From positions 202,154 to 266,153 of the IMG/VR virus record IMGVR_UViG_3300002092_001784: a stretch of 64,000 nucleotides of DNA; one strand, written 5' to 3'. A program made the translations under genes and the position numbers. A model generated the notes under the pieces. That model was not told where the DNA came from. It was given only the letters and a program-made list of their open reading frames with translations, and made no database searches. The stretch comes from a virus (lineage: Duplodnaviria > Caudoviricetes). Shown here one piece after another: positions 24,204-47,706 of the stretch; position 1 is the first letter of the stretch; every line of letters starts with the position of its first letter.

Positions 24204-26378
24204 ATGCGCAAACAAAAGTTACTTTACGTTGCACCTCATTTATCTACGGGTGGACTTCCACAATATCTTTATAAACAAATAACACATTTTAGTGATGAAT
24301 TTGAAATCGAAGTTGTGGAAGTCCATAATATGGGCGGTGAGGTATTTGTAGTTCAAAAGAACCGAATACGAAATACCGTTCCACTTCACACTCTTGGTGA
24401 AAACAAATCTGAAATATTGGATATTATAACTCAGTTTCAACCCGATGTTATACATTTTCAAGAAATACCCGAATATGATATTGCTACTAATATTTTGGAT
24501 ACTATTTTCTCAAAAAATAGAAAGTATTTCATTATAGTAACCACACATGGTTCTAATACCAATCCAGAAACAATATCATACCACCCGGACAAATACGTTT
24601 TAGCATCCGAATGGAGTAGACGACGGTTTGAAATAACTGGAGTGCCAACCGATGTATGGGAGTATCCAATATATGATATTCGTACTGAAATTGGACTGAC
24701 CAAAGAAGAAGCACAACGGAAATTAGAATTAGACCCGACATGGAAGCATGTACTTAATGTTGGATTATTCACACAAGGTAAAAATCAGGCAGAGATATTT
24801 GCTATGGCTAGGCAGTTGGAAAAATATAAAATAAAATTCCACTTTGTTGGCAATCAGGCGGGTAATTTTGAATCATATTGGAAACCTCTAATGGATTATA
24901 AGCCAGATAATTGTGTTGTGTGGGGTGAACGAACTGATACTGATACATTTTATGCGGCATGTGATTTGTTTTACTTTAGTTCTAAATTGGAATTGAATCC
25001 GTTATCGGTTAAGGAAGCGCTTTCATTTGATATGCCATGCCTTTTCCGCAAATTAGAAACTTATTTGGACAGCTATGATAATAATGAACTTGTCACATAT
25101 ATAACAGATGATGTAAACATAACCAAACGAATCCTATTGGAAAAACTACAACCGGAATTAAATGAAGTTGTTGGGTGGTTTTCATATGATTATCTATATG
25201 ATAGTATGGTTAATTCTGTCAAAACTCCAGTTGAATTTGTTGAGGTTGGTGCATGGCTGGGTAAATCTACAAACTATATGGCAACTCGCATTAGGGAATC
25301 GGGAAAACCAATTCATTTTACAACAGTTGATACTTGGAAAGGTACGGATGATGAAGAACTACATCAGAATATAGTAAATACGTTTAACGGTGATATTTTT
25401 TATGAATTTATTGATAACACAGTTATATCTAAAAACTACGGAACATTTGATTGTATAAAAGATACATCGGAGAACGCTTCAAAACTGTTTGCAAATAATT
25501 CGATTGATTTTATTATGTTGGATGCTGGTCATTCATATGAATCGGTTAGAGATGATTTGAAATATTGGTATCGTAAAGTTAAACCCGGAGGAATTATTTC
25601 TGGAGATGATTATCGTATTATGTTTGAGGGAGTAACTAGGGCAGCCGATGAATACTTTTACGGACAAGTTGAACATTCAAACCTTCAATTTGTTAGAAAA
25701 AAACCAAAGATTCAAATTTTACACCTATTGACCAGACCCGATGATATGAGGGAGAGGGTTAGTATTGCTTCGTTAAAACAGTTGGAACAGTACGGTATGA
25801 AATATACTCAAATGGTTAATACACCTTATGATGGGTTGCCGCCAAAAGAACATTGTTCGAGACCCGATGCAATAAGTGATACTCCTAGGTACTTAGGAAA
25901 CGGATTTGGAACTATAACTGGTAGACACTATGGCTGTTATCTTGCTCATAGGGGAGCGTTAGAAGCAATGAGTGATGAGTATGATTATACTCTTATATTT
26001 GAAGCAGATGCTTTCATTTATACCGGTCTGGAAGAATTTGTGGATATTGTACATAAAGCCTGTTTCATATCTGAACGGGATAATGTACCTTATATCGGTT
26101 TGGCGAATAATCCATCGTGGAATAAATGGGAAGTTGATGGATTGTTTAGTAAAACAGATTACAATCAGGATTTAGCACACTGTTACCTAATACCAAATCG
26201 TGAAAAAGATTGGTGGATGGACAGAATTGAAGATATTCCTTGGGATGTGGCTGATTTATGGTATAATAATGTTTTTCTTAACAGACCACGTCCTCGTTAT
26301 ACTACAAATAAAATGTATAGTAAACAGGCAGAGGGATTTTCACTTTTAGATCAAACAGTTAAAACTTGGAATGAATGA
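24204..26378 (+). CDS. Three-domain protein: GT-B (GT4-like) glycosyltransferase, SAM methyltransferase, GT25-like glycosyltransferase
   Basis: HLSTGGLPQY...FYAACDLFYFSSKLELNPLSVKEA (GT4-like), FVEVGAWLGKST...MLDAGHSYE...PGGIISGDDY (class I methyltransferase), GCYLAH...LIFEADA (GT25-like). Confidence 0.75.
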   Translation: MRKQKLLYVAPHLSTGGLPQYLYKQITHFSDEFEIEVVEVHNMGGEVFVVQKNRIRNTVPLHTLGENKSEILDIITQFQPDVIHFQEIPEYDIATNILDTIFSKNRKYFIIVTTHGSNTNPETISYHPDKYVLASEWSRRRFEITGVPTDVWEYPIYDIRTEIGLTKEEAQRKLELDPTWKHVLNVGLFTQGKNQAEIFAMARQLEKYKIKFHFVGNQAGNFESYWKPLMDYKPDNCVVWGERTDTDTFYAACDLFYFSSKLELNPLSVKEALSFDMPCLFRKLETYLDSYDNNELVTYITDDVNITKRILLEKLQPELNEVVGWFSYDYLYDSMVNSVKTPVEFVEVGAWLGKSTNYMATRIRESGKPIHFTTVDTWKGTDDEELHQNIVNTFNGDIFYEFIDNTVISKNYGTFDCIKDTSENASKLFANNSIDFIMLDAGHSYESVRDDLKYWYRKVKPGGIISGDDYRIMFEGVTRAADEYFYGQVEHSNLQFVRKKPKIQILHLLTRPDDMRERVSIASLKQLEQYGMKYTQMVNTPYDGLPPKEHCSRPDAISDTPRYLGNGFGTITGRHYGCYLAHRGALEAMSDEYDYTLIFEADAFIYTGLEEFVDIVHKACFISERDNVPYIGLANNPSWNKWEVDGLFSKTDYNQDLAHCYLIPNREKDWWMDRIEDIPWDVADLWYNNVFLNRPRPRYTTNKMYSKQAEGFSLLDQTVKTWNE

Positions 26379-27532
26379 GTATTTACGATAACTTAAAAAA
26401 GAATAATAATAATATAGTTCAAGTTACAAAAGTAAACGATGCAACTATTCATTTTGTGAAAGGACCTTTTGTAGAAATTACAGGCCCAAAGCAAGCCGAT
26501 TATCGAATTGATTTTATTGATAATAATACGGGTAATATATTATATAGCGGAACGCAGAGTAATAATATGTGGTCTAAATGTAATATTGAATATTTTGTAG
26601 ATTGGAAGATTGTAATTTATGAAAATGGTGTATTATGGAAAGAATACCATTATGATGTAAACGGTAAGCATGTTTATATTGCATTGGATTCAAAAGCATT
26701 GGGTGATACGTTGGGCTGGTTTCCAATGGCTGATGAATTTAGAAAAAAACATAATTGCCGTTTAAGTGTATCCACATTCAACAATAAATTGTTTAGGGGT
26801 CAATACCCCGATATTAAATTTGTAGAACCGGGAGAAGTTGTAGATAATATTTACGCAATGTATACATTGGGATTGTTTTACAATGAAGATGGCTCGTTGA
26901 ATATGTTTATGCACCCTAATAATCCACGTGAACAACCAATGCAGAAAATGGCATCTGATATATTGGGATTAGAATATAAAGAGGTTCGTCCAAAGTTAAG
27001 AACTCGTCCAATCAATATAGATAAAGATTCTAAGCAGATTACGGTAGGTTTATTTGGAACGGCTCAAGCCAAATTTTGGAATAATCCAAACGGATGGCAA
27101 GAAGTTGTGGATTGGTTAAAGGGTAGAGGGTATACTGTTAGGGTATTATCCAAAGAACCTGATAACTATATGGGAAATCGAATACCAAAAGGTGTAATTC
27201 AACAGGGTGAAGCTCCATTGGTTGATTTAATGGATGAAATGCGGCAATCTAAAGCATTTATTGGAATCGGTAGTGGGTTGAGTTGGTTGAGTTGGGCATT
27301 GAATGTACCAACTGTTCTGATTAGTGGGTTTTCATACGATTGGGCTGAAATGCAAGATTGTATAAGAATATCAGCACCAGCTGGAAAATGCCAAGGTTGT
27401 TTTAATCGGTTGAGATTGGATGCCGGTGATTGGCATTGGTGTCCCGATCATAAAGATACGCCAAAACATTACGAGTGTACAAAAACCATAACAAGCGATA
27501 TGGTTATAAAAGAATTGGAAAAATTTCTATAA
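26375..27532 (+). CDS. aah: Aah/TibC-family protein O-heptosyltransferase
   Basis: N-terminal beta domain IDNNTGNILY, catalytic-type ALGDTLGWFP, FIGIGSGLSWLSWA, and four-Cys metal site C-x2-C-x13-C-x11-C (CQGC...WCPDH...YECTK). Confidence 0.85.
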   Translation: MSIYDNLKKNNNNIVQVTKVNDATIHFVKGPFVEITGPKQADYRIDFIDNNTGNILYSGTQSNNMWSKCNIEYFVDWKIVIYENGVLWKEYHYDVNGKHVYIALDSKALGDTLGWFPMADEFRKKHNCRLSVSTFNNKLFRGQYPDIKFVEPGEVVDNIYAMYTLGLFYNEDGSLNMFMHPNNPREQPMQKMASDILGLEYKEVRPKLRTRPINIDKDSKQITVGLFGTAQAKFWNNPNGWQEVVDWLKGRGYTVRVLSKEPDNYMGNRIPKGVIQQGEAPLVDLMDEMRQSKAFIGIGSGLSWLSWALNVPTVLISGFSYDWAEMQDCIRISAPAGKCQGCFNRLRLDAGDWHWCPDHKDTPKHYECTKTITSDMVIKELEKFL

Positions 27533-27533
27533 T

Positions 27534-27941
27534 ATGAAAGTGTGGATGAATGGTTGTTTTGATGTGTTAGGGCATGGACATTTCAAATTGATAAATCATG
27601 CAGCATCAATCGGAAATGAAGTTGTAATTGGTATTGATACGGATAGACGAGTAAAAATTCTAAAAGATGATACTCGTCCATACCATACAGCAGAAGAACG
27701 AAAGTTCAATTTATTATCAATACGAGGTGTTGATAGGGTAATCATATTCGATTCTGCTGAAGAATTGGCAGAACTTATAAAAACCGAAGCACCTGATATT
27801 TTTTTAATAGGCGAAGATTATATTGGAAAACCGATAGTAGGTGCCGAATACGCCAAAGAAATACATTATTTTCCTAGGCAAGAACGATTGAGTACAACAA
27901 AAATTTTACAAAATGGAAAAGAAAATATTAGTAATTGGTGA
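27534..27941 (+). CDS. rfaE2: HldE/RfaE domain II-like heptose-1-phosphate adenylyltransferase
   Basis: MNGCFDVLGHGH...GIDTD...K..RP...ER...VDRVIIF...IGEDY...STT. The HxGH motif is atypical. Confidence 0.75.
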   Translation: MKVWMNGCFDVLGHGHFKLINHAASIGNEVVIGIDTDRRVKILKDDTRPYHTAEERKFNLLSIRGVDRVIIFDSAEELAELIKTEAPDIFLIGEDYIGKPIVGAEYAKEIHYFPRQERLSTTKILQNGKENISNW

Positions 27942-28659
27942 ATCATGTACGGATGTATTTGTGTATGGTAGTTCAATCCGAAAATCACCTGAAGGTAAAG
28001 GACCAGTATTAGTTCCAACTTCAGAAGTTTATTATTCGGGTATGGCGGCAAATACCTATAATAATCTATTGGCATTGGGAATGGATGCTGCATTATTTTC
28101 TCAAAATTCAGAAATTATAAAAACAAGATATATTGATGATGCGAGTGGTGAATTGTATCTACGAATAGATGAATATGATTCGACAAATCCAATTCAAATG
28201 GAATATTTGCCTGATTTGTCCCAATATGATGCCATCGTTATTTCTGATTACAATAAAGGATTTTTAACAGAACAAAATATACAAACAATCGCATCTAAAC
28301 ACCCATTGGTAATATTGGATACAAAAAAACAACTAGGTGCTTGGTGTAAAGATGTTAAATTCATTAAATTGAATAGAACGGAAAGTGAAAAAAACTTACA
28401 AACTATTTTAAGTTATAATTGGTTGCGTGAGAAGGTGATAAGTACATTGGATAAGGATGGGGCATCATATATGAATAGATTGGTTACCGCAAAACCAGTA
28501 GATGTAGTAGATATATCGGGCGCAGGAGATACTTTTGTTGCTGGGTTTATTAAAGAATACTTAGAATCCAACGATGTATTCAAATCAATCGAATTTGCTA
28601 ATGAATGTGCGGCAATAGTAATTGCTCAAAGAGGTATTACTACCATACAAAAGGATTAA
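27913..28659 (+). CDS. rfaE1: HldE/RfaE domain I-like heptose-7-phosphate kinase (PfkB family)
   Basis: ILVIGESCTDVFVYG...R.SPE, GMAAN, IVISDYNKG, KLNRTE, DISGAGDTF. Confidence 0.85.
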   Translation: MEKKILVIGESCTDVFVYGSSIRKSPEGKGPVLVPTSEVYYSGMAANTYNNLLALGMDAALFSQNSEIIKTRYIDDASGELYLRIDEYDSTNPIQMEYLPDLSQYDAIVISDYNKGFLTEQNIQTIASKHPLVILDTKKQLGAWCKDVKFIKLNRTESEKNLQTILSYNWLREKVISTLDKDGASYMNRLVTAKPVDVVDISGAGDTFVAGFIKEYLESNDVFKSIEFANECAAIVIAQRGITTIQKD

Positions 28660-28705: not shown

Positions 28706-31700
28706 ATGAATGAGCTTGTAAAACATTTAGTTGAAACTATAATTTCGGAAGAAACTGAAAAAAATTATATTGTTGTATATTCCGGTAGATTTCAACCATT
28801 TCACAAAGGACATTATGCTACTTACTTAAATCTTACCAAAAAATTTGGAAAAGATAAAGTTTACATTGCTACGTCTAATGTAACTGATAATAAAAAATCA
28901 CCTTTTAATTTTGCAGAAAAAAAGGTTATAATGACTAGAATGTTCGATATTCCATCGGACAAAATAGTACAGATTAGAAACCCATATGCACCTACTGAAA
29001 TATTAAATAAATATGATCCAGAAAAGACAGGTGTTATTTTTGTTGTTGGTGAAAAGGATACTGCTAGACTTGGTGGTAAATATTTCACACCATATAAGGG
29101 TACGGTTGATGCTGGATATAAAGATAAAGGATATGTATATGCTTCACCTGCACAACCAAACGCAATAAGTGGTACTGATGTTCGTAATTGGTTAGGTAAC
29201 GGTACGGATGAAGAAAAGAGAGCCAATTTTCTGAAAGCATATCCAAAATTCGATGAGAAGATTTTCAAATTAATAACACTCAAGTTGAAAAAATTGGGTG
29301 AATCTATACGTGAGGAAATCAAAATCAATGTAAATGTTGGCGATACGGTGTTAATGGGAAAATTCAAAAACCATCCGGTTAAAGTTAAATCAATCGGTAA
29401 GGATGAACATGGTATGCCAACCATTAATGGAAAGAAAGCCGCTACATTCAGAATAGGTAATCATATAAATATATTTGATACTGCGGTCAATGAAGATGGT
29501 GCGGGCGCCGGAGGTGCTGCCGGGTTTGGAGGACAAGGTGGTGGAGCTGGTGTTGGGTTATCTTTACCCGGTGGATATATAAACGGAGCACCAAATCCAA
29601 AGGATGTTAAAAAGACAAGAAAGAAATTAAAACAAAAAGATGATGATATTTACACACCAGTAAATGAAGCATCTCTTGCTGGATATTATGCTGATAGCGG
29701 AGAACCAAATCCTAATTATGTAGCTGATGGACAAGAACGTATTTTAGATAAAGGAAAGCCAGAACCTTGGTTTACACAAGGAGGGTATACTCAATTACAT
29801 ATTCCAAAAGGTGATTGGATGAGAGGTAAGGCATTAAAAGATCGTGAAGATGATATGCAACTTCGTAAGGTATACTACAAAGTTCAAAATATTAAACAAA
29901 GTGCATTAAATCCGGCAGATGATCCACATACTACCGAAGATTGGCAAGTTGTTAATAGGGATACTCCGTTGGAAAAACCAAAAAGATTTTGGGAATTACC
30001 AAAAAATCAAAAGCCTGAAATAATAGATGATAAAGAAATTACTGAAATATTCAATCAGACCCTAAAAGAATTGGGATTGTTGGAATTTAGTGGTGGGCAC
30101 TCGTTTCCACATGATGGTAACGCAACAACAGGTCGTCAATGGAACAAATCATGGGAAGAATATGATAATCCGGATGCATATATTAAACACCTAATGGGAT
30201 GGTCTACTAAAGATGCCATACCAAGCGATAGGTTTAAGGATATTAAACATCAAGAAATTCCATTAAATCAATCCGGACAGGAAACAGGAATATACGATCA
30301 TACATTGGATTACAATATACTTGCTCCAAATGAATTTTTAGAAAAATCTGAAATTCAAAAGGGTGTGGTGAACGATGCTTCAGATGAAATGCATCGTCCT
30401 TTACATAATGGAATGGAATGGCCATCTATGGATGATATTAAAGCCAAACGAAAAAAAATAAAATCAAAACTTCGAAGTCCTAAAAATTCGTATTTGAGTG
30501 TGGATGCTCCAATCGTAGGTGAAACCGATTCCGAAGCATTAGATGAAATGGCAATGCCAGATATGAAATCGGTAGAAAAATACGCAGATCAACAGTTGAG
30601 TCCGGAAGATGTTGAATTAGGAAAGCAAACTGACCATTTTTTCCAACGATTAAATGATCCACGAAACGGAAAACCAATTTCGACAGCAGAAATGATAGGT
30701 TTCTTTAAGAGGTTGGGTAACAACAAAGAGAAATTTTTAGATTTTGTAAAGAAATATAGTGAATTTGTTGTAAAGGATAATAGAACAAATATCAATATCG
30801 CCTTTATGAAGCAGGCTAATAAACTTATTGCCAAAACGGTGATGAGAAAGCCTGATTTTAAGACAAGCAATCCAATATTTGTAGATGAAGCTGAACAATT
30901 GGATGAATTGGCATGGTCTACTAGTGCATTTAATTTTGTGCAAGATGTTGATGTACCATTTACACCAAAAGTTGCAAAAGCACTCTATGGTGATATGATA
31001 GTTACTACATTTCATGTTAGCGATTCTGATAATATTGATAATATTAAAAAGTTAATCGGTAAGAAAAAATCAGTGTCAACATTTACATATATGGCGCGAA
31101 CCGCTTTGCAGAATATGGATGGTATACAAACCGACGGTGGTATAATATATCAATTAGTTGGTAAGGTTTTAATAGATTCTGCGAATGATATTATGAGTAG
31201 ACCTGATGAACAGGGTAGACGGTGGGTAATGGGACGAGATTTGAATCCAGTTACCTATAAATTGTATCAGAAATTTTATAAGTATATGGGTTCTAAGAAA
31301 GAACTTCAAAAATACGATGAAAAATATGAATCAACTTATGATGCAGACACTGACTCTAGTTCATTAACCAATAAAGAAAAATCTGAATGGATAGCAGCAT
31401 ACATTCGATTGGCTGAAGAGTGGATTATTCAGCACGCCGATGAATTTAGGGATACTATGCGTAAGATGCCAATGGATGAATATTGGAATGAAGTAGTGGT
31501 ATACGATATACACATTAAAGATGTATTGTGGACAAACTCTGGGCAGTTTGGGACGGCTGACGAAGATGAATTGAATGAAATAAGTCATAAATTAAATACA
31601 ATCGCAACCGGAACTGTTTATTACACCGATGAACCTTCAGATGCATTGAAATTTGTAAAATCAAGAGGTGGACAATATGCCAAAGCAAATATCGGATTAC

Positions 31701-32173
31701 CATATAAAGGTGTGCCGGTTGGCAGTACAAATATTAATAGTATATTAAGTGCCGACGCATTTAACATGAAAGAATCGGTTCAACCAATTAGTATCAACGA
31801 AGCAACCGAAGCATTGAAGATGCACATACCATCGGATATTGAGCAAATATATAAAATGTTTCAAAAAAATGGTAAGAAATTGTATATTGTTGGTGGTGCT
31901 GTTAGGGATGCTATTTTGGGAAAGACACCAAAAGATTTTGATTTAGCAACCGATGCTACTCCTGATGAAGTTTTAGCTATGGCTAAAAAGGAAGGTATGC
32001 ATTCGACAGAAGTTGGAAAAGCATTTGGTGTGGTGATTGTTAATGGTAATGAAATAGCAACTTTCAGGAAAGATGTGAAATTAAAAGATAATGCAGATGA
32101 TTTTATAAAATATTTACAATATATTAATATACCGAATACTCGTATATCTACTTTCAAAAAAGAATTGAATTAG
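28706..32173 (+). CDS. Multidomain polyprotein A: NMNAT/NadM-like nucleotidyltransferase, small unknown modules, ART-like module, N-terminal half of class II CCA-adding enzyme
   Basis: SGRFQPFHKGH...SPF...ISGTDVR, then LYIVGGAVRD...KDFDLATD...EIATFRKD near the C-terminus. Modules are bounded by VNE/LDE/INE linkers. Confidence 0.8.
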   Translation: MNELVKHLVETIISEETEKNYIVVYSGRFQPFHKGHYATYLNLTKKFGKDKVYIATSNVTDNKKSPFNFAEKKVIMTRMFDIPSDKIVQIRNPYAPTEILNKYDPEKTGVIFVVGEKDTARLGGKYFTPYKGTVDAGYKDKGYVYASPAQPNAISGTDVRNWLGNGTDEEKRANFLKAYPKFDEKIFKLITLKLKKLGESIREEIKINVNVGDTVLMGKFKNHPVKVKSIGKDEHGMPTINGKKAATFRIGNHINIFDTAVNEDGAGAGGAAGFGGQGGGAGVGLSLPGGYINGAPNPKDVKKTRKKLKQKDDDIYTPVNEASLAGYYADSGEPNPNYVADGQERILDKGKPEPWFTQGGYTQLHIPKGDWMRGKALKDREDDMQLRKVYYKVQNIKQSALNPADDPHTTEDWQVVNRDTPLEKPKRFWELPKNQKPEIIDDKEITEIFNQTLKELGLLEFSGGHSFPHDGNATTGRQWNKSWEEYDNPDAYIKHLMGWSTKDAIPSDRFKDIKHQEIPLNQSGQETGIYDHTLDYNILAPNEFLEKSEIQKGVVNDASDEMHRPLHNGMEWPSMDDIKAKRKKIKSKLRSPKNSYLSVDAPIVGETDSEALDEMAMPDMKSVEKYADQQLSPEDVELGKQTDHFFQRLNDPRNGKPISTAEMIGFFKRLGNNKEKFLDFVKKYSEFVVKDNRTNINIAFMKQANKLIAKTVMRKPDFKTSNPIFVDEAEQLDELAWSTSAFNFVQDVDVPFTPKVAKALYGDMIVTTFHVSDSDNIDNIKKLIGKKKSVSTFTYMARTALQNMDGIQTDGGIIYQLVGKVLIDSANDIMSRPDEQGRRWVMGRDLNPVTYKLYQKFYKYMGSKKELQKYDEKYESTYDADTDSSSLTNKEKSEWIAAYIRLAEEWIIQHADEFRDTMRKMPMDEYWNEVVVYDIHIKDVLWTNSGQFGTADEDELNEISHKLNTIATGTVYYTDEPSDALKFVKSRGGQYAKANIGLPYKGVPVGSTNINSILSADAFNMKESVQPISINEATEALKMHIPSDIEQIYKMFQKNGKKLYIVGGAVRDAILGKTPKDFDLATDATPDEVLAMAKKEGMHSTEVGKAFGVVIVNGNEIATFRKDVKLKDNADDFIKYLQYINIPNTRISTFKKELN

Positions 32174-32211: not shown

Positions 32212-32964
32212 ATGATTATATACAAAGTAACAAATAAAATAAATAAAAAGATATATATTGGACAAACTATACGTTCAATGACGGAACGTAAATATGGACA
32301 TATAAAATCTGTTAGAATGGGAAGTACTTCGTTGTTTCATAATTCTATTAGAAAATATGGAATTGATAATTTTACATGGGAAGTAATAGACACGGCACAT
32401 TGTATAGAAAAGTTAAATGAATTAGAAATTAGTTATATTGCAAAATTTAATTGTTTTATTGATTTTCAAAATAGTAATGGGTATAATATGAATACTGGTG
32501 GTGGTAATTATATAACATCACATTTAACTAAACAAAAACTTAGTATTATAAATACCGGTAAAATTTTATCAACCGAAACTAAAGAGAAAATCAGTAAAGG
32601 TAACCTTGGAAAATCAGTAACCGAATCATTTCGAAAAACTATGAGTGAGTTAAATAAAGGTAGAGTTGCTAGTTTGGAAACTAGAGAAAAAATAAGTAAA
32701 TCTTTGCAAGGCAAGCCGGGTAGAAATACCGGTAATACGCATACTCAAGAAACTAAAGAAAAAATATCGAATACAAAAAAAGGAACGGTTTCTTGGAATG
32801 CATCGCCAGTTATACAACTAACGATGGACGGCGAATTTGTTAGAGAATGGCGAAGCGCAGCATTTGCCGCATCCCAATTAAAGTTAAGTCAAGGCAATAT
32901 AACATCATGTATACATGGTAAACGAAACAGTACTGGTAACTACAAATGGATTAAAAAAATATGA
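32212..32964 (+). CDS. GIY-YIG homing endonuclease inserted into the CCA-enzyme coding region
   Basis: IIYKVTNKINKKIYIGQT...GYN, several NUMOD3 repeats and C-terminal NUMOD1. The stop overlaps the next start (ATGA). Confidence 0.92.
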   Translation: MIIYKVTNKINKKIYIGQTIRSMTERKYGHIKSVRMGSTSLFHNSIRKYGIDNFTWEVIDTAHCIEKLNELEISYIAKFNCFIDFQNSNGYNMNTGGGNYITSHLTKQKLSIINTGKILSTETKEKISKGNLGKSVTESFRKTMSELNKGRVASLETREKISKSLQGKPGRNTGNTHTQETKEKISNTKKGTVSWNASPVIQLTMDGEFVREWRSAAFAASQLKLSQGNITSCIHGKRNSTGNYKWIKKI

Positions 32965-35900
32965 AAAATTGGAAAGAAATTGCTAAGCAGTATTTTGCGG
33001 ATGAATATATTGATTTTCAAAAATTAATAAGTGGTACTGGTGCAAATATAAACGTTAAACGGGGGGCTCAGATTGTAGATTATACGGATATTGAGGGTGA
33101 TGTCAAACGACGTGACTTGACAATTAATGCGTTATTTTATGATATTGATAGAGGTGAAATCGTAGATTTAGTTGGTGGTATAGCAGATTTACATAAAAAG
33201 AAAATACGAACCGTTGGTAACGCAACTGAAAGATTTGATGAAGACCCTCTTCGGAAATTAAGAGCGTTGAGATTTTACAGTCAACTGGGTGGTAATATGG
33301 ATGTTGAAACTCTTAAAGCATTAAAAGATAACCCATCATTGGAAGGTGTAAGTGCGGAAAGGATTCGTGACGAATTTATAAAAACACTTAATAAAGCAAA
33401 ATCCGAAAAGAGATACCTTCAAATGCTGCAAGCTCTTAAATTCTTAAATCAAATTCTACCCGATTTGGTGGTGGCTAAACCGTATGTAGATGAAAATGAT
33501 TACATTGTATTACTTGCGTATTTGCTTAGAGAAAATGATACTCAAACTCTAATACGTCAACTAAATAAGTTGAAGTATACAAACGATGAATGTAAAGATA
33601 TAACTTTTTTGGTATCGCTACAATCATTCACCGCAGATAAAATTGCCAATTACAAAAAAAACCAATCTGTTACTACATTAAGTGATAATCAAATATTGGA
33701 ATTTGGGAAATTGATCGGAAAGAACTTCAATAAATTTGTGAAATTTCAATTAGCTATAAAAGGTTCAGATGTACCTGCTGGATTAAAAGGTAAAGATATT
33801 GGAAATTGGATGGGTGATGCTGAATCAAAACGATTTTTGAATGAAGCAGTAGTGATTAAAAATTTCAAAGATATATTCAGTAAATTACCAACTGAAGTTC
33901 AGAAAAAAATATATTCACTAAAAGATGCACCGCAAAACCCAAAACATCATCCGGAAGGTAATACATTAAAGCACACTATTATGGTGGTGAATCGTGCATT
34001 GAAGTATTTTCCGAATGATATTGATTTAATAATAGCAGCAATATTTCACGATATAGGTAAAGCTGATACGATGAGTATTCATCCAAAGACCGGTGGTATA
34101 ACTCATTATGGGCATGAAGATGTATCTACCGAATGGGTTAACCGATATAGTAATTGGATTGAATCTATGGGTGGAAACGCTGAAGATGTACGATATATTG
34201 TACAGAACCATATGAAAATGCATAATTTTGATATAATGCGATTGGCAAAACAACGTGCATTACAATCGCATCCTGCATTTGATAAATTATATGGATTTTC
34301 CCAAAAAATGGATAAGGGTGGATTCGGTGAGGGAATACATGAGGGAGTAAGTGAGGGTATAAATAATCCAAAAATTACATTTCTAATCGGACCTCCTGCT
34401 TCTGGAAAAAGTACTTGGGTTAGTAATAACTCAAAAGGTGCTATTATCATTTCACGTGACGATATTGTAGACCGTTTAAGAAAACCATTGGGATTATCGT
34501 ATGGTGAGGCATTTAGTAATGATGAGTTACAAAATAAAGTTAATTCTGAGCTACAATCCCATATTACACAGACACTTACTTCTGGCAAGGATATAGTTGT
34601 GGATATGACTAATATGACCAAAAAAGGTAGACATAAAATATTATCAAGAGTACCAAAAAACTATACAAAAAATGCGGTAGTGTTTAGTGTTGGTCGTGAT
34701 GAATTACTTAAACGATTAAAATCAAGGGAAGAAGAAACTGGGAAAACTGTACCTGTTTCGGTTGTAGACCAAATGATTAGGAATTTTCAGAAGCCAGATA
34801 CCGGAGAATTTGATAACATTACAAATGAGGGAATAACTGAGGGTGTAATCAATGAATTGGCTTGGCAAGGCAAAGCAATGGATCGGATACAGGAATTGGG
34901 ATTCCCATTGACACCTAAAATTGGTAAGGAAGTATATGGTGATACAGTTGTTACTACATTTCATGTAAGCGATGTAAACCATATTGATGATATTAAAAAA
35001 ATAATCGGTAAAAAGAAATCCATATCAACATTCAAATATATGAATGATATGATGCTGAAAAATATGGATGGCATTAGAACCGTCGGTGGTATTATTTATG
35101 AATTGCGAGGAAATATAGTAGCAGATTCAACCAAAGATATAGGTAGTGCCCCAGATGAACAAGGACGTAGATGGGTGATGCTATATTCATCGGCACCGGG
35201 TATATATAAATTTACATATGGGTTCAAACAGAAATTAAAATCCAATCCAATAACAGGTCCTATTTTTGAGTATTTTTGGAAAAATGGTATAATGCCGGAA
35301 ATGGATAATACTAATAAAGCAAAATTCATAGCAGCATATATTTCTACGGCAGAAAAATACATAATTGAAAATCAAGATGATTGGGTACAACTATTGCTTT
35401 CACCGCAAACTAATAATGCTTGGAATGAAGTATTGGTAAATAATATACAAGTTAATGATATAATTTGGACAAATAAATTTTATCAATATAGTAAAGAACA
35501 ATTAGCTGAATATTCTAAAAAATTAGAAGTAATTGCAAAGGGTAAAGTATATTTTACAATGGATTCAAAAGATACCATTGAATTTGTTAAATCACGCGGT
35601 GGCTTTACTGGTAATATTAATGCCACACCAAAAGAATATATGGGAGCGGCAGTTGGAAGTGAAGATGCAATGAAATTTATGAAAGAAGAAGTGCTGAATG
35701 AATTGGCTTGGGAGGCTGGTGTTAATAAATTTATAACACAAATGAATTTTCCGTTTACACCAAAAGTTGGGAAAGCATTATATGGTGACGCGGTTGCTAC
35801 TACATTTCATATAACAGATGCTGACAACTTTTCTAAAATAAAATCTCTTATCGGCAAAAAGAAATCCATTTCTTCGTTTACCTTTATGGGTGATGATATG

Positions 35901-37844
35901 TTAGATGATATAAGGGGAATACAGACCGTAGGTGGTATTTTATTTCAATTAGAAGCAAAAATAGTACTAGATTCCGCGGTAGATGCGATGAGTCAACCGG
36001 ATACAGAAGGTAGACGTTGGTCAATCGAACCAACAACATTGAGAAAACAATTCAAACAGGAAATATATGATGATGCCAAGTTTTATAAACGATTTAATTT
36101 ATATTGGGCTGGCGGAAAGGCAATGACTCAAAGTGAAAAGGGTAAGTTTGTAGCGGATTATATCACACGAGCTGAAAAGTTTTTAATTAAAAATAAAAAT
36201 AAAGTTATAAAAGAGTTAAGATCGCATGGGTTGGTGGGTGATTGGAATGAAGTTATTGTATATGATATAAAGGTAAAGGATGTATTATGGACAAATACTT
36301 CCAATAATTATTATACCGATAGAATACGACATAGTGATGCTGAAATAAAGCGTATTGCTAGTGAACTAAAACAAATAGCAACTGGTACTGTATATTTTAC
36401 TGAAAATCCTAAAGATGCTATTGAATTTGTGAAAAGTAGAGGTGGTTTTGTTGGTGGCAGTGGCTGGGACTCTACTGGTGAATATAAAGGAGCTGCTGTT
36501 GGCAGTACAAATCCAAAAATTATTATGAAAGAAGGAAATATGAAAACTATAATGGAAGGCTTGAGTAAAAAAGATTTACTAATCGAAGAACTGATGGTTC
36601 AAAGACAATACGGATTACTTGCTAATAACCAAAAGGTATTACTACAATGTGGTGGGGCCTACGGACATATGCATCACCCATTTGATACCGAAATCAATCT
36701 TACATTTGGGGATTTGAAAGATATAGTAAAGAAAGCGTTAACTGGTGAATTGGAACTTACTCGTGAAAAAACAGATGGTCAGGCTCTCGCAATTAGTTGG
36801 GTAGACGGTAGATTGGTTGCTGCTCGTAATAAATCACATCTTAAAAACAAAGGAAAGGATGCAATGACTTTACAAGCCGTTGCTGATAAATTTGGTGGGC
36901 GTGGTGGATTATCCGATGCATACAATTTTGCAATGCAAGACCTTTCAAATGCAATTAGTGCATTATCAGAAGCACAAAGACAACTTATATTCAAAGATGG
37001 GACATGTTTTATGAATTTGGAAGTAATATATCCAACTTCGGTAAATGTAATACCATACAATCAGGCACTATTGGTATTTCATGGAACATTTGAATACGAC
37101 GAGAGTGGAAACATAATTGGTGAAAATCAACCCGCAGCTCGTGTATTGGCAGGTATGATTAAGCAGGTAAACCAGAATGTTCAAACGAAATACAAAATAC
37201 AAGGACCACCGGTTATTCAATTACCAAAATCGGCAGATTTGACAGACCTTCAATCAAAATATTTGGCAATGGTTTCAAAATTACAATCAGAATTTGGATT
37301 ATCAGATTCAGATGGTGTTGCTGATTATCATCAGGCATGGTGGAGGTATTACATCGATGTTAACGCACATTCATTGCCGGAAGAACAAAAGAAAGCACTA
37401 ACAAAAAGATGGGCATTTTACGATAAATCATTTAGGTTGAAGGATATTCAAGATGATACAGTTAGAGCTTGGGCTGAAAAAATAGATAAGCAAGATCAAG
37501 CAAAAATTGCGAAAGATAATCTAATGAGGTTTGAACAGATATTTTTAGGAGTGGGTTCAGATGTACTTTCATTTATGAAATCAGTTCTTACCGCAAATCC
37601 TGATGAAGCAAAACGACAGATGGTTAGTAAATTAGATCAAACGATTAAAGATGTAAAAAACAGTGGTGATCCGAAAAAGATAGAAAAACTAAAATTAGAA
37701 TTACAGAGATTACAATCGGTAGGTGGGTTTGATAAAATTGTACCAATCGAAGGTATTGTTTTTGTATATAAAGGTAACGTAATGAAGCTAACAGGCGCTT
37801 TTGCTGCATGCAATCAAATTAACGGTATCTTTTTTTCAAAATAG
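32961..37844 (+). CDS. Multidomain polyprotein B: C-terminal part of CCA enzyme, HD domain, P-loop PNK-like kinase, two ART-like modules, RNA-ligase-like domain
   Basis: DVKRRDLTINA and FDEDPLRKLRALRF, HHPEG...FHDIGK...HYGHE, GPPASGKST...VVDMTN, EKTDG...NLEVI...EGIVF...MKL. Confidence 0.82.
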   Translation: MKNWKEIAKQYFADEYIDFQKLISGTGANINVKRGAQIVDYTDIEGDVKRRDLTINALFYDIDRGEIVDLVGGIADLHKKKIRTVGNATERFDEDPLRKLRALRFYSQLGGNMDVETLKALKDNPSLEGVSAERIRDEFIKTLNKAKSEKRYLQMLQALKFLNQILPDLVVAKPYVDENDYIVLLAYLLRENDTQTLIRQLNKLKYTNDECKDITFLVSLQSFTADKIANYKKNQSVTTLSDNQILEFGKLIGKNFNKFVKFQLAIKGSDVPAGLKGKDIGNWMGDAESKRFLNEAVVIKNFKDIFSKLPTEVQKKIYSLKDAPQNPKHHPEGNTLKHTIMVVNRALKYFPNDIDLIIAAIFHDIGKADTMSIHPKTGGITHYGHEDVSTEWVNRYSNWIESMGGNAEDVRYIVQNHMKMHNFDIMRLAKQRALQSHPAFDKLYGFSQKMDKGGFGEGIHEGVSEGINNPKITFLIGPPASGKSTWVSNNSKGAIIISRDDIVDRLRKPLGLSYGEAFSNDELQNKVNSELQSHITQTLTSGKDIVVDMTNMTKKGRHKILSRVPKNYTKNAVVFSVGRDELLKRLKSREEETGKTVPVSVVDQMIRNFQKPDTGEFDNITNEGITEGVINELAWQGKAMDRIQELGFPLTPKIGKEVYGDTVVTTFHVSDVNHIDDIKKIIGKKKSISTFKYMNDMMLKNMDGIRTVGGIIYELRGNIVADSTKDIGSAPDEQGRRWVMLYSSAPGIYKFTYGFKQKLKSNPITGPIFEYFWKNGIMPEMDNTNKAKFIAAYISTAEKYIIENQDDWVQLLLSPQTNNAWNEVLVNNIQVNDIIWTNKFYQYSKEQLAEYSKKLEVIAKGKVYFTMDSKDTIEFVKSRGGFTGNINATPKEYMGAAVGSEDAMKFMKEEVLNELAWEAGVNKFITQMNFPFTPKVGKALYGDAVATTFHITDADNFSKIKSLIGKKKSISSFTFMGDDMLDDIRGIQTVGGILFQLEAKIVLDSAVDAMSQPDTEGRRWSIEPTTLRKQFKQEIYDDAKFYKRFNLYWAGGKAMTQSEKGKFVADYITRAEKFLIKNKNKVIKELRSHGLVGDWNEVIVYDIKVKDVLWTNTSNNYYTDRIRHSDAEIKRIASELKQIATGTVYFTENPKDAIEFVKSRGGFVGGSGWDSTGEYKGAAVGSTNPKIIMKEGNMKTIMEGLSKKDLLIEELMVQRQYGLLANNQKVLLQCGGAYGHMHHPFDTEINLTFGDLKDIVKKALTGELELTREKTDGQALAISWVDGRLVAARNKSHLKNKGKDAMTLQAVADKFGGRGGLSDAYNFAMQDLSNAISALSEAQRQLIFKDGTCFMNLEVIYPTSVNVIPYNQALLVFHGTFEYDESGNIIGENQPAARVLAGMIKQVNQNVQTKYKIQGPPVIQLPKSADLTDLQSKYLAMVSKLQSEFGLSDSDGVADYHQAWWRYYIDVNAHSLPEEQKKALTKRWAFYDKSFRLKDIQDDTVRAWAEKIDKQDQAKIAKDNLMRFEQIFLGVGSDVLSFMKSVLTANPDEAKRQMVSKLDQTIKDVKNSGDPKKIEKLKLELQRLQSVGGFDKIVPIEGIVFVYKGNVMKLTGAFAACNQINGIFFSK

Positions 37845-37908: not shown

Positions 37909-38751
37909 ATGATTATATATAAAGCTACAAACAAAGTAAGTGGTAAGTGCTATATTGGGCAAACTGTTAAGACTTTAGAAAATAGAATATATCATCACAT
38001 TTCTAATTCTAAATCTGCAATACATAAAAGTATTTTTCACAATGCTTTGAAATCTTATGGTTCTGATAATTTTGAATGGGAAGTTATAGCAACGGCCGAT
38101 ACAAAAGAACAACTTAATGAATTGGAAATATACTATATAACAAAATATGATAGTATAAATACCGGTTATAATATGGTTGAAGGTGGGACTGGTGGTTACA
38201 ACCAATTTGCGGTAGATGCAAACAAATTAAAAAGAGCAGGTAAAACTTGGAATGAAATATATTCAGATACGGGGTTGGCTGTTATGAAAAATGCATTATC
38301 TACTTTTACTAAAGCTGGGGTTGAATATATTAAAAATTTACCAAAAGAACAAAGAATTATTAATGCAAAACGAGCTAACAAAGCCAGAACTGATATGGGA
38401 TATAAACATAGTGATGCAACAAAAGATAAAATGAGTAAAGCTCAAAAAGGTATAACCAATACAGACCGATATGGTGAAGATGCTGCCAGCGAACTAAAAA
38501 AGAAAATATCCGAAGCAACTAAAGAAGCTATGAAAAAAGTGGACAGGGATTTAATCGGAAGAAAATCAGTTGAAGCTCGTACACCATTTTGGAATAAAAA
38601 ACACGAAAATGATAGAAATGTGATATTAGAGATGACAAAACTGGGTAGTAAAATTAAAGATATAATGTTTGCTATAAATGTATCACCACCGACTTATTAT
38701 AAACGAGTTAATGAATTGAAAAATATGGGATACTCCAATTTGTTTGAATAA
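37909..38751 (+). CDS. Free-standing GIY-YIG homing endonuclease
   Basis: IIYKATNKVSGKCYIGQT...GYN, NUMOD3 HSDATKDKMSKA, C-terminal HTH-like segment. Confidence 0.88.
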   Translation: MIIYKATNKVSGKCYIGQTVKTLENRIYHHISNSKSAIHKSIFHNALKSYGSDNFEWEVIATADTKEQLNELEIYYITKYDSINTGYNMVEGGTGGYNQFAVDANKLKRAGKTWNEIYSDTGLAVMKNALSTFTKAGVEYIKNLPKEQRIINAKRANKARTDMGYKHSDATKDKMSKAQKGITNTDRYGEDAASELKKKISEATKEAMKKVDRDLIGRKSVEARTPFWNKKHENDRNVILEMTKLGSKIKDIMFAINVSPPTYYKRVNELKNMGYSNLFE

Positions 38752-38850: not shown

Positions 38851-39531
38851 ATGACAAAAGAATTTAATAAAGGTTATATGCATCCAACTCGTAGAAAACT
38901 TGTGGATATGGTTCTATCCGGCGGAGAATACGATGGTGATGCTACATTTGGGTACAGAGATATTCAACAGGAAGTTAAACATGCTGTTGGCGAACGGTGG
39001 ACTGATTCTGATGGAAAGAAATGGAAGCAAACAGATGGTGGTAGAGTTGCGGACTCCGAATTAAGTGATATTATGGCAGATGCTCGTGCATATTTAGGTA
39101 AAATGAAATCATGCGCATCTAAAGATTGTAAAACTATAAAATTAGGCAGAGTAGATAAGAAATTGGTAGCAAAAACTGGATATTGTTTACATTGCCTTAC
39201 AATAAAAGAAGCACAGATAAGATATGATGGGTTATGGGAGGTATATGCGGATTATAAGATATATTCAAATATGGTTGGGCACGGTAGAGATGTTTTGGCA
39301 AATCTAAACCAATCATTAAAGGATGTTAAACAAACATACGAATATGTAAATGCCGATGGTAAGTTAGAAACTTGGACTATGGATAGAGATGCTAATGAAT
39401 TAAGAGCAGAAATTCTAATAGATATAACCAATGTTGAAAGAGAACTTGATGAGGTAATAGAATTACGAAATACGGCATGGGACAAACTTAAAGATAAAGG
39501 TTACGATTTAGTAAAAGCACCAACTGACTGA
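38851..39531 (+). CDS. Hypothetical protein upstream of terminase (CxxxxC/CxxC motifs)
   Basis: 226-aa ORF ending 2 nt before terL, containing CASKDC and CLHC. Confidence 0.6.
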   Translation: MTKEFNKGYMHPTRRKLVDMVLSGGEYDGDATFGYRDIQQEVKHAVGERWTDSDGKKWKQTDGGRVADSELSDIMADARAYLGKMKSCASKDCKTIKLGRVDKKLVAKTGYCLHCLTIKEAQIRYDGLWEVYADYKIYSNMVGHGRDVLANLNQSLKDVKQTYEYVNADGKLETWTMDRDANELRAEILIDITNVERELDEVIELRNTAWDKLKDKGYDLVKAPTD

Positions 39532-39533
39532 TT

Positions 39534-41129
39534 ATGAATCAACCAATAGTACAAAAGAAATCCCTAAAGGATATTATAGCAGAGGAATATAAAAAATGTG
39601 CGGTAGACCCGATACATTTTATGAAAAAGTATTGTATGATACAGCACCCTGTTAAGGGAAAAATACCATTTCAATTATTTCCATTTCAAGAAAAGACATT
39701 AACCGAATTTAATGCAAACCGTTTTAATGTGGTTCTAAAATCCAGACAAACTGGTATTTCTACATTATGTGCCGGATATGCATTATGGAAGATGTTATTC
39801 AATACGGATTTTAATGTATTGGTAATCGCTACAAAACAAGAAGTTGCTAAAAACCTTGTTACGAAAGTACGTGTAATGCATCAATTACTACCTGCATGGT
39901 TACGAGGTGGTAGTTTGGAAGATAATAAACTTTCATTGGGATTGCATAACGGTTCACAAATTAAAGCAATCGCATCATCGCCTGACGCAGGACGTTCTGA
40001 GGCATTATCGTTACTGATATTTGATGAGGCGGCATTTATTGATGATATTGATGAGATATGGAAATCTGCACAATCTACATTATCAACGGGAGGTAGCTGT
40101 ATATCATTATCAACTCCAAACGGTGTGGGTAATTGGTTTCATAAAACATGGGTAGGTGCGGAAGAAGGTACAAATCCGTTTGTTCCTATAAAATTACATT
40201 GGACTGTTCATCCAGAAAGAGATCAAAAGTGGAGAGATGAGCAAGAAGAACTCTTAGGAACTAAAGGTGCAGCTCAGGAGTGTGATTGTAACTTTGTAAG
40301 TTCGGGTGATACTGTTATTGATCCTGCGTTATTGATGTTTTATAAAGAAACTTATGTAATGGAGCCAATTGAAAAGGGTGGGATTGATGGAAACTTATGG
40401 CGGTGGGAATTTCCCGATTTCACTAAATCCTATATGATAGTAGCTGACGTTGCGCGTGGTGATGGTGCTGACTTTTCAACGGCTCATGTTATTGATATTA
40501 TAAATTCGGTTCAAGTTGCAGAATACCGTGGAAAAATGGAAACTAAAGATTTTGGAAACTTTTTAGTGGCTTTGGCAACTGAATATGGTGATGCGCTTCT
40601 CGTAATTGAAAACGCAAATGTTGGATGGGCGTGTATTCAGCAGGTAATAGATAGAGGGTATCGTAATCTATTCTATATGTCCAAAGACTTAAAATATGTG
40701 GATACTGAAAATCAATTTACAAACCGATACAGAGCAGAAGACAAGGGATTGGTTGCTGGATTTTCAACTACTTCTCGGACAAGACCGTTGATTATTTCAA
40801 AATTAGATGATTATTTCAGAGATAAATCTATAATCATACACTCATCGAGAACAATAGATGAATTATTTACATTTATTTTCAAAAATGGAAGAGCAGAAGC
40901 AATGCAAGGGTATAACGATGACTTGGTTATGGCTTTAGCTATTGGGTTATGGGTAAGAGATACTGCACTTCGCTTGAGACAAGAAGGTATTGATTTAACA
41001 CGAAAGGCAATAGGTGGTATTTCAAACCAAACCTATTCGGGCATTTATGGTGGTAATTTTAACAGAGATAAAGACCCTTGGAAGATGAGAGTTGGTGATA
41101 ATTATGAAGATTTATCTCAATGGTTGTAG
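39534..41129 (+). CDS. terL: Terminase large subunit (T4 gp17-like)
   Basis: LKSRQTGIST Walker A, LIFDEAAF Walker B, STPNG, nuclease motifs VADVARG and NDDLVMA. Confidence 0.95.
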   Translation: MNQPIVQKKSLKDIIAEEYKKCAVDPIHFMKKYCMIQHPVKGKIPFQLFPFQEKTLTEFNANRFNVVLKSRQTGISTLCAGYALWKMLFNTDFNVLVIATKQEVAKNLVTKVRVMHQLLPAWLRGGSLEDNKLSLGLHNGSQIKAIASSPDAGRSEALSLLIFDEAAFIDDIDEIWKSAQSTLSTGGSCISLSTPNGVGNWFHKTWVGAEEGTNPFVPIKLHWTVHPERDQKWRDEQEELLGTKGAAQECDCNFVSSGDTVIDPALLMFYKETYVMEPIEKGGIDGNLWRWEFPDFTKSYMIVADVARGDGADFSTAHVIDIINSVQVAEYRGKMETKDFGNFLVALATEYGDALLVIENANVGWACIQQVIDRGYRNLFYMSKDLKYVDTENQFTNRYRAEDKGLVAGFSTTSRTRPLIISKLDDYFRDKSIIIHSSRTIDELFTFIFKNGRAEAMQGYNDDLVMALAIGLWVRDTALRLRQEGIDLTRKAIGGISNQTYSGIYGGNFNRDKDPWKMRVGDNYEDLSQWL

Positions 41130-47106: not shown

Positions 47107-47706
47107 ATGCAACCAAAACTATTAATTGAAACAAGACTATTTGAAGGACGAGTACAAGAAGATTCTGGCGGAAGGACTCTTGTAAAGGGTATTCTTCAGA
47201 GAGCTGATGCTGAAAACCAAAACGGTAGAAAGTACCCACGTCAGGTATTAATGCGTGAAGCCAAAAAATACGAAACTCTAATTAAAGAACGTAGGGCTCT
47301 TGGTGAATTAGACCACCCAGATTCAACGGTTATCAATCTAAAGAACGTATCTCACAATATTAGAGAAATACATTGGGATGGGGATGATTTGTGTGGTACT
47401 ATTGAAATTTTACCAACACCATCCGGCAATATTTTGAAGGAACTTCTTAAAGCAGGTATTCTATTGGGAATTTCTTCAAGAGGTATGGGTTCTACTCGTC
47501 AGTTAGAAGGTACAACAGTGGAAGTGCAAGATGATTTTGAATTAATTGCATGGGACTTTGTATCAAATCCATCTACACAAGGAGCATTTATGACGCCTGT
47601 AAATGAATCAGTAAATAGAGGACTTCAACAAATTGGAACTGATATTTGCGGAGAATATTGCAGAGCACAGGATTTAATGAGAGAAATTATAACAGAAATA
47701 TCATAA
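47107..47706 (+). CDS. gp21: Prohead maturation protease (T4 gp21-like)
   Basis: ENQNGRKYP, RALGELDHP, GISSRGMGS, DFVSNPS. Confidence 0.95.
   Translation: MQPKLLIETRLFEGRVQEDSGGRTLVKGILQRADAENQNGRKYPRQVLMREAKKYETLIKERRALGELDHPDSTVINLKNVSHNIREIHWDGDDLCGTIEILPTPSGNILKELLKAGILLGISSRGMGSTRQLEGTTVEVQDDFELIAWDFVSNPSTQGAFMTPVNESVNRGLQQIGTDICGEYCRAQDLMREIITEIS

Follow-up and report, generated by a model that had tools for sequence, protein, structure and literature searches.

The C-terminal end of a 1627-amino-acid (aa) open reading frame (ORF) in a caudoviricete phage very probably encodes a true covalent nucleotidyltransferase, a member of that superfamily in which the catalytic residues are conserved. 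On balance, we lean towards a new RNA-ligase-like clade of lysine adenylyltransferase that seals RNA as part of a tRNA-repair polyprotein. The window analysed is a 64,000-nucleotide (nt) stretch of IMG/VR record IMGVR_UViG_3300002092_001784, corresponding to genome positions 202154-266153 of this complete 266-kb phage record. Positions given below are those of the window unless marked as genome positions, and the polyprotein ORFs with their domains, the endonuclease ORF between them, the 226-aa and terminase genes and the protease gene described below lie on the plus strand. The ORF extends over 32961-37844 and the ligase-like domain over 36651-37844 (aa 1231-1627, the last 397 codons), where 36651 is the first G of the conserved element GGAYGHMHHPFD and 37844 belongs to the stop codon.

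An earlier sequence-only reading had recognised six nucleotidyltransferase motifs in this region. Each of these (I, Ia, III, IIIa, IV and V) was found once in the ORF, in the canonical order, between nt 36765 and 37796. To assess their conservation, 146 homologous domains with an overall identity of ~40-70% were aligned. Motif I, EKTDG (aa 1269-1273, nt 36765-36779), contains the predicted AMP-accepting lysine, K1270, which is kept in 143/146 sequences, with D1272 and G1273 kept in 144/146. In motif Ia, AARNK (aa 1287-1291, nt 36819-36833), R1289 is invariant (146/146) and K1291 is kept in 133. The glutamate of motif III, NLEVI (E1354; aa 1352-1356, nt 37014-37028), was present in all 146. Motif IIIa, LVFHG (aa 1371-1375, nt 37071-37085), includes F1373 and H1374, the latter kept in 144/146 and predicted to stack on adenine, as the motif IIIa histidine does in fungal Trl1 (PMC6379707). 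Both E1597 and G1598 of motif IV, EGIVF (aa 1597-1601, nt 37749-37763), were kept in every sequence. Motif V, MKLTG (aa 1608-1612, nt 37782-37796), retains K1609 in 145/146 and has a threonine, T1611 (142/146), where other ligases have a second lysine. As these motifs are near-invariant at such a level of overall identity, the pattern is selected and not a product of chance.

Two homologues from two clusters, P0358 and P0364, carry an intein (PF07591/PF14890) inside motif I. The sequence ELTREK is followed by the intein, starting with Cys, and then by TDGQ, such that the insertion lies directly after the predicted catalytic lysine and before TDG. Inteins are typically located in the catalytic motifs of important enzymes. 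Of the features that mark a covalent lysine nucleotidyltransferase, the analysis found a KxDG motif I, the remaining motifs from Ia to V in collinear order (motif V with a single lysine) and a predicted nucleotidyltransferase fold.

The fold was predicted with AlphaFold 2 (AF2) for P0003, the query piece containing the ligase-like domain, using a 45-sequence alignment. A single-sequence prediction (predicted local distance difference test, pLDDT, of 35) was unusable. The alignment-based model reached a pLDDT of 89.9 and a predicted template modelling (pTM) score of 0.84, with pLDDT >90 from residue 51 to the end and a low-confidence linker (pLDDT <50) at residues 30-50. The predicted fold is that of the nucleotidyltransferase core of ATP-dependent ligases (two antiparallel sheets that form the nucleotide pocket). 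A Foldseek search with this model against the PDB gave nothing at E <= 1e-3. T4 Rnl1 and Trl1 ranked top (E ~3e-3), the best rows were RNA ligases, and all 50 of the 50 matches listed were ligases, with scores of 8.0-9.2 for RNA ligases and 5.5-7.3 for DNA ligases. In a viral model library, RnlA-type ligases were matched from E = 1.7e-5. The Foldseek check that the sequence-only reading had proposed therefore pointed to a ligase fold for the AF2 model, and not to a non-ligase one. That reading had left the choice between a divergent RNA ligase and an adenylyltransferase acting on protein or RNA. The predicted fold, the invariant motifs and the motif-by-motif alignment with T4 Rnl1 fit this interpretation; for an adenylyltransferase directed at proteins, nothing was found in support.

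The ligase-like domain of the window protein had no match in Pfam, PHROGs or NCBIfam, and phmmer and hmmsearch against PDB sequences returned no ligase, only low-complexity helical matches to eS6. Using hhalign, comparison with the single T4 Rnl1 sequence was marginal (E = 0.12). When the family profile was compared with a profile of 120 T4 Rnl1 homologues, motifs I-IIIa were in register, again at a marginal level (P = 0.047). With the helical insert described below deleted, motifs I-V became collinear with those of T4 Rnl1 (P = 0.0025, the best of three deletion variants). The resulting equivalences were K1270=K99, K1291=K119, E1354=E159, E1597/G1598=E227/G228, K1609=K240 and T1611=K242, with E159 lying within NFEFVAPTNRIVLAY of T4 Rnl1. 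The stretch following motif III, YPTSVNVIPY, is notably like APTNRIVLAY of T4 Rnl1. For the Rnl1 family itself (PF09511, RNA_lig_T4_1), no match at E <= 1 was found in the protein or anywhere in the genome. For PF09414 (Rnl2/Rnl5), sub-threshold matches were obtained in 4/45 relatives (best E = 0.0057); the window domain has no such match and no OB module.

Beyond the motifs, the domain has two further elements. The N-terminal one, GGAYGHMHHPFD (36651-36686), is specific to the family and contains H1236, H1239 and D1242 in an HxxH..D arrangement, kept in 140/146, 136/146 and (as D/E) 143/146 sequences, respectively. Between motifs IIIa and IV lies an all-helical module of ~170 aa (37230-37736) carrying a conserved KRWAFxDKS. 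The long helical insert before motif IV, which had been noticed from the sequence, was borne out by the AF2 model, with helices at P0003 residues ~240-408 (pLDDT >94) and Foldseek-aligned ranges (~46 to ~438) that bridge this block. Within the insert, W1461, L1480 and W1484 are invariant and R1483 and K1489 near-invariant, and its own structural matches were generic helical hairpins only. The claim that the protein has no OB (oligonucleotide/oligosaccharide-binding) domain also held, as the chain stops 18 residues past K1609, no OB family matched the ORF, and what lies upstream of the domain is a repeat of another kind.

Read from its N-terminus, the 1627-aa ORF begins with the second half of a CCA-adding (PolyA_pol) head domain and its RNA-binding domain. 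These are followed by an HD domain (33966-34226), a P-loop polynucleotide-kinase-like domain (AAA_33; 34377-34796), two repeats of ~270 aa and the ligase-like domain. The AAA_33 domain also matches polynucleotide-kinase families, namely phrog_505 and the kinase portion of the bacterial Pnkp model TIGR04075. Upstream, a 1155-aa ORF (28706-32173) corresponds to the N-terminal half of the same ancestral polyprotein. An NMNAT-type CTP_transf_like domain (28706-29305) lies at its start, and the first half of the PolyA_pol/CCA-adding head domain at its end. The split falls between profile positions 1-76 in the 1155-aa ORF and 79-126 in the 1627-aa ORF, where a GIY-YIG/NUMOD3 homing endonuclease ORF (32212-32964) interrupts the polyprotein gene. 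Among the 150 best homologues, 103 have the NMNAT-type domain (GRFQPFHxGH ... ISGTxVR) N-terminally in the same chain as the ligase-like domain. Judged from these sequences, the NMNAT-type domain of the window is taken as part of the polyprotein family, and the two ORFs and the endonuclease insert as derived from one gene of the form 'NMNAT-like ... variable middle ... ligase-like'.

Based on the motif assignments, K1270 would attack the alpha-phosphate of ATP to form an enzyme-(lysyl)-AMP, with the catalytic metal held by E1354 and E1597, H1374 stacked on the adenine, and the nucleotide contacted by R1289 and K1291 of motif Ia and by K1609. The AMP would be passed to a 5'-phosphate end, after which the 3'-OH would seal the break. 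The HxxH..D element may take the place of the absent Rnl1-type N sub-domain and may handle metal or pyrophosphate. The in-core helical module, and not a domain appended after motif V, is the most likely means of substrate recognition and may be a dedicated module for it. RNA is preferred as the substrate because the neighbours by structure are RNA rather than DNA ligases, because the protein lacks both an OB domain and motif VI, and because the HD, kinase-like and CCA-adding domains present in cis follow the heal, seal and CCA-restore logic of phage tRNA repair. The ligase-like domain would then provide the sealing step of a set that also comprises the HD phosphoesterase, the polynucleotide-kinase-like P-loop domain and the CCA-adding enzyme of the same polyprotein.

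To determine how widespread the domain is, an exhaustive HMMER search was performed. The family comprised at least 1719 cluster representatives at E <= 1e-3, 538 of them at E <= 1e-30, and was present in at least 547 IMG/VR loci on viral contigs. The footprint of the match was always P0003 residues ~40-441 and almost always C-terminal, and standalone forms of ~410 aa exist. By tblastn of 50,697 phage records, only three records were found. Public sources label the relatives 'hypothetical' or name them by another domain, such as 'cytidyltransferase-like', which comes from the partner. Pfam CTP_transf_like was detected in 22 of 36 long members. The minimal two-domain form is a 639-aa protein of the cultured relative Microcystis phage Mel-JY01 (WWT39297), and in P0146, which belongs to the same family as the window domain, the order of the domains is reversed. 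RNA-repair modules occurred among the same 36 long members as AAA_33 (six), PolyA_pol (five), HD (three) and 2H phosphoesterase (one). The variable middle of the homologues was also seen to contain DUF5661, which often immediately precedes the ligase-like domain, as well as ROS/MucR, GNAT, cupin, 2H phosphoesterase and zeta-toxin-like kinases. The layout suggests a cargo cassette flanked by two fixed end domains.

A Foldseek match to a protein of Synechococcus phage S-PM2 (E = 1.3e-6) led to a second family, DUF6267 (PF19782; 'T4-GC 71'), which is found in 469 phage records, mostly of T4-like cyanophages, and is also carried by the nearest protein-atlas cluster. Like the window family, DUF6267 proteins are ~400 aa long and present KHLEHIED, TKWDG, GTKSVFNK, a helical middle, PEGYV and MIKLV in the same order, with KHLEHIED standing where the window family has its HxxH..D element. 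They are likewise uncharacterised and, here too, a CTP_transf_like enzyme is either fused to them or encoded next to them. They differ in having QGDLLF at motif III, in lacking the h-x-E leader considered below, and in being located in the replication gene cluster, where in cyanophages they sit among gp41, gp43, UvsX, gp61 and nrd. The DUF6267 Pfam model had no match at E <= 1 in the window protein and none in the genome. The comparison of the two family profiles was not significant (hhalign P = 0.06), nor were hhalign comparisons with the single S-PM2 and P-HM1 proteins. Support for the proposed kinship therefore comes from structure, from architecture and from the partner enzyme that both families have.

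The association with the partner enzyme was inspected in individual phages. In S-PM2, p141 and p142 encode DUF6267 followed by CTP_transf_like, the reverse of the order in the window family. S-PM2p141 and S-PM2p142 (NC_006820, 103025-104804) are two pieces of one gene, and UniProt holds a 591-aa S-PM2 protein of this kind. Their span of 1780 nt is not a multiple of three, which indicates that the NC_006820 record carries a frameshift. In P-HM1, the DUF6267 gene codes for 401 aa and runs into the start of the cytidyltransferase gene. The same adjacency was observed in 69/69 IMG/VR loci with enough downstream sequence, at a gap of -12 to +3 nt, although these loci are not independent, as all are relatives of P-HM1. 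The occurrence of fusion in both orders together with adjacency argues that the ligase-like and NMNAT-like enzymes work together.

The genes around the polyprotein gave indications of packaging into the capsid. Downstream of the ligase-like gene is a gene for a 226-aa protein (38851-39531) with no Pfam or PHROG match, followed by the large terminase gene (TerL; 39534-41129). This order (ligase-like gene, 226-aa gene, TerL) was conserved in nearly all of 80 IMG/VR loci, and the 226-aa protein may be the small terminase subunit. Genes for a portal and a major head protein lie downstream, and a T4 gp21-type prohead protease (Peptidase_S77) is encoded at 47107-47706 (PF03420, E = 8.4e-28, the match spanning window 47176-47610, genome 249329-249763). 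Proteases related to gp21 cleave after Glu in x-X-E motifs, and the capsid-targeting sequences of T4 are leaders of 10-20 residues in which positions 8 and 10 govern processing (PMC9026906, PMC5694885).

Leaders resembling these were found at the N-termini of the polyproteins and of standalone forms. The 1155-aa ORF starts with MNELVKHLVE/TIISE, other polyproteins with MNELSKFLVE/SILLE, and standalone ligase-like proteins with MIRLKKILNE/VLLNE/GGAYGH (slashes follow the Glu residues concerned). As in the T4 capsid-targeting sequence, position 8 is Leu and position 10 is Glu. A further h-x-E (hydrophobic-x-Glu) triplet stands directly before the GG of the ligase-like domain in 210/239 homologues. 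In the window protein, the low-confidence linker ahead of the domain (36549-36650) contains two candidate prohead-protease sites, IME/G (aa 1197-1199) and LIE/E (aa 1207-1209), placed 31 and 21 residues ahead of the GG, respectively. Other homologues with LLQC or LLLM at the boundary have INE/S at a similar distance. By analogy with T4 Alt and the T4 internal proteins, the prohead is the probable destination of the polyprotein. The gp21-type protease would then probably cleave it at h-x-E sites, releasing the ligase-like domain, and delivery into the host would take place together with the DNA.

Several observations weigh against an RNA-sealing enzyme delivered in this way. Its chemistry and RNA substrate are predictions for every member of the family, and the similarity of its sequence to known ligases is sub-threshold. 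The hhalign alignments start at T4 Rnl1 residue 92, leaving R54, K75 and F77 of the Rnl1 N sub-domain with no counterpart identified. The second lysine of motif V, present in T4 Rnl1 as K242, is replaced by Thr in the window family. The genome also carries a second ligase candidate, a 439-aa Rnl5-like ORF outside the window (genome 165784-167103) with a PHA02142 OB-fold domain and a weak RNA_ligase (PF09414) match. It was the only other candidate found, and genome searches for Rnl1, RtcB and ATP- and NAD-dependent DNA ligases gave none. Healing modules are present in a minority of the family, and its universal partner is the NMNAT-like domain, which a plain ATP-dependent RNA ligase does not explain. 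With regard to the putative packaging, the window protein has LLQC/GG at the domain boundary and not h-x-E.

The partner domain is the basis of the strongest rival, a two-enzyme system in which the NMNAT-like domain provides for AMP transfer from NAD+ or another dinucleotide, or in which the pair modifies 5' ends by adenylylation or NAD-type capping. We regard this as unlikely, while giving it real weight. Besides the shared chain, the two domains are reversed in P0146 and S-PM2 and adjacent or overlapping in P-HM1 and the 69 loci, and fusion in both orders plus adjacency is a classic sign of functional coupling. The single lysine of motif V and weak matches to PF01653 (NAD-ligase adenylation) in 4/45 members would also fit. 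However, NAD+ made merely for lysine adenylylation would bring no gain over ATP, LigA domain Ia has no counterpart, the PF01653 matches are at noise level (best E = 0.025) with none on the window domain, cleavage of the polyprotein would part the two domains, and the NMNAT-like domain, too, has no more than a putative substrate. A broader version, also doubtful and more so, would be an obligate ligase-like/NMNAT-like machine across aquatic T4-like phages, including the DUF6267-cytidyltransferase pair, that uses a donor made by the partner (NAD+ or another product) or caps RNA or DNA ends and is delivered pre-made from the capsid.

A role as the phage DNA ligase, sealing nicks for replication or in repair before packaging or after injection, seems rather improbable. 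In its favour, the genome has no PF01068 or PF01653 DNA ligase, a genome-wide PF01653 search giving only a 13.7-bit match broken by stops; the gene adjoins the terminase; and the sister family DUF6267 lies among cyanophage replication genes. Neither of the traits of ATP-dependent DNA ligases, a PF01068 match and a C-terminal OB domain, was found in the window domain, and DNA ligases were the lower-scoring of its structural neighbours. KTDG is also motif I in several capping enzymes, which counts for a GTP-dependent capping-type enzyme; we consider this, together with a protein-directed adenylyltransferase, very unlikely, and the capping-enzyme reading was rejected. The least probable alternative is a degenerate, non-catalytic ligase fold that has no role beyond that of a structural protein or an internal protein of the head. 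The location in the head module and the capsid-targeting-like leaders would suit such a role, but it was rejected because the catalytic positions are conserved in 143-146 of the 146 domains and an intein targets motif I.

Further genes were observed near the polyprotein gene. Upstream, the region 24204-28659 encodes a glycosyltransferase/methyltransferase fusion, a GT9 heptosyltransferase-like protein and a PfkB kinase. A second GIY-YIG/NUMOD3 homing endonuclease is encoded at 37909-38751, between the polyprotein gene and the 226-aa gene; this spacer is missing from related loci.

The conserved pairing with an NMNAT-like enzyme and the signs of packaging raise two ideas. These phages may inject an RNA-repair kit with the genome, pre-empting host anticodon nucleases, and NAD metabolism may be linked to the joining of nucleic-acid ends. 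The obligate machine, if real, would represent a novel kind of system for modifying nucleic-acid ends or for NAD-dependent RNA ligation. The analysis also reveals a large family that Pfam, PHROGs and NCBIfam do not detect, and offers a first functional hypothesis for DUF6267. The size of the family, its obligate NMNAT-like partner, the DUF6267 kinship and the packaging signs had not been noticed in the sequence-only reading. New RNA ligases would be useful as laboratory reagents. No prior description was found of the clade, the DUF6267/cyanophage link, the NMNAT coupling or the probable packaging. The literature covered held no publication on the family, Mel-JY01, DUF6267 or an NMNAT-RNA ligase fusion; the survey of Burroughs & Aravind (2016) was outside that coverage and may mention the family.

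Compared with known systems, the predicted packaging most resembles that of the T4 internal head proteins and Alt. The features in common, as read here from the genes, are leaders 10-16 residues long in which position 8 is hydrophobic and position 10 is Glu, as well as h-x-E sites, a gp21-type protease and a location in the head module. To our knowledge, no ligase or RNA-repair enzyme is among the T4 head proteins.

As an enzyme, the closest comparison is T4 Rnl1 (PF09511 + PF20819). T4 Rnl1 has an N sub-domain, whereas only ~38 residues precede motif I in the window domain, and its C-terminal tRNA-binding domain (PF20819) follows motif V, where the window domain has nothing. Conversely, the window family has the helical module of ~170 residues between motifs IIIa and IV and its own HxxH..D element. 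RNA ligases have been divided into six clades, Rnl1-6, defined by the domains appended to the nucleotidyltransferase core (PMC6379707). None of the domains appended in fungal Trl1 (Rnl6), the Naegleria enzyme (Rnl5), T4 Rnl2 or REL1 is present here, and the extra module sits within the core. With no tail past motif V, a short N-terminal element, an in-core insert and a single-lysine motif V, the domain was therefore not filed under an existing clade. If active, the family would be a seventh RNA ligase clade, distinguished by its in-core helical module, HxxH..D element and single-lysine motif V.

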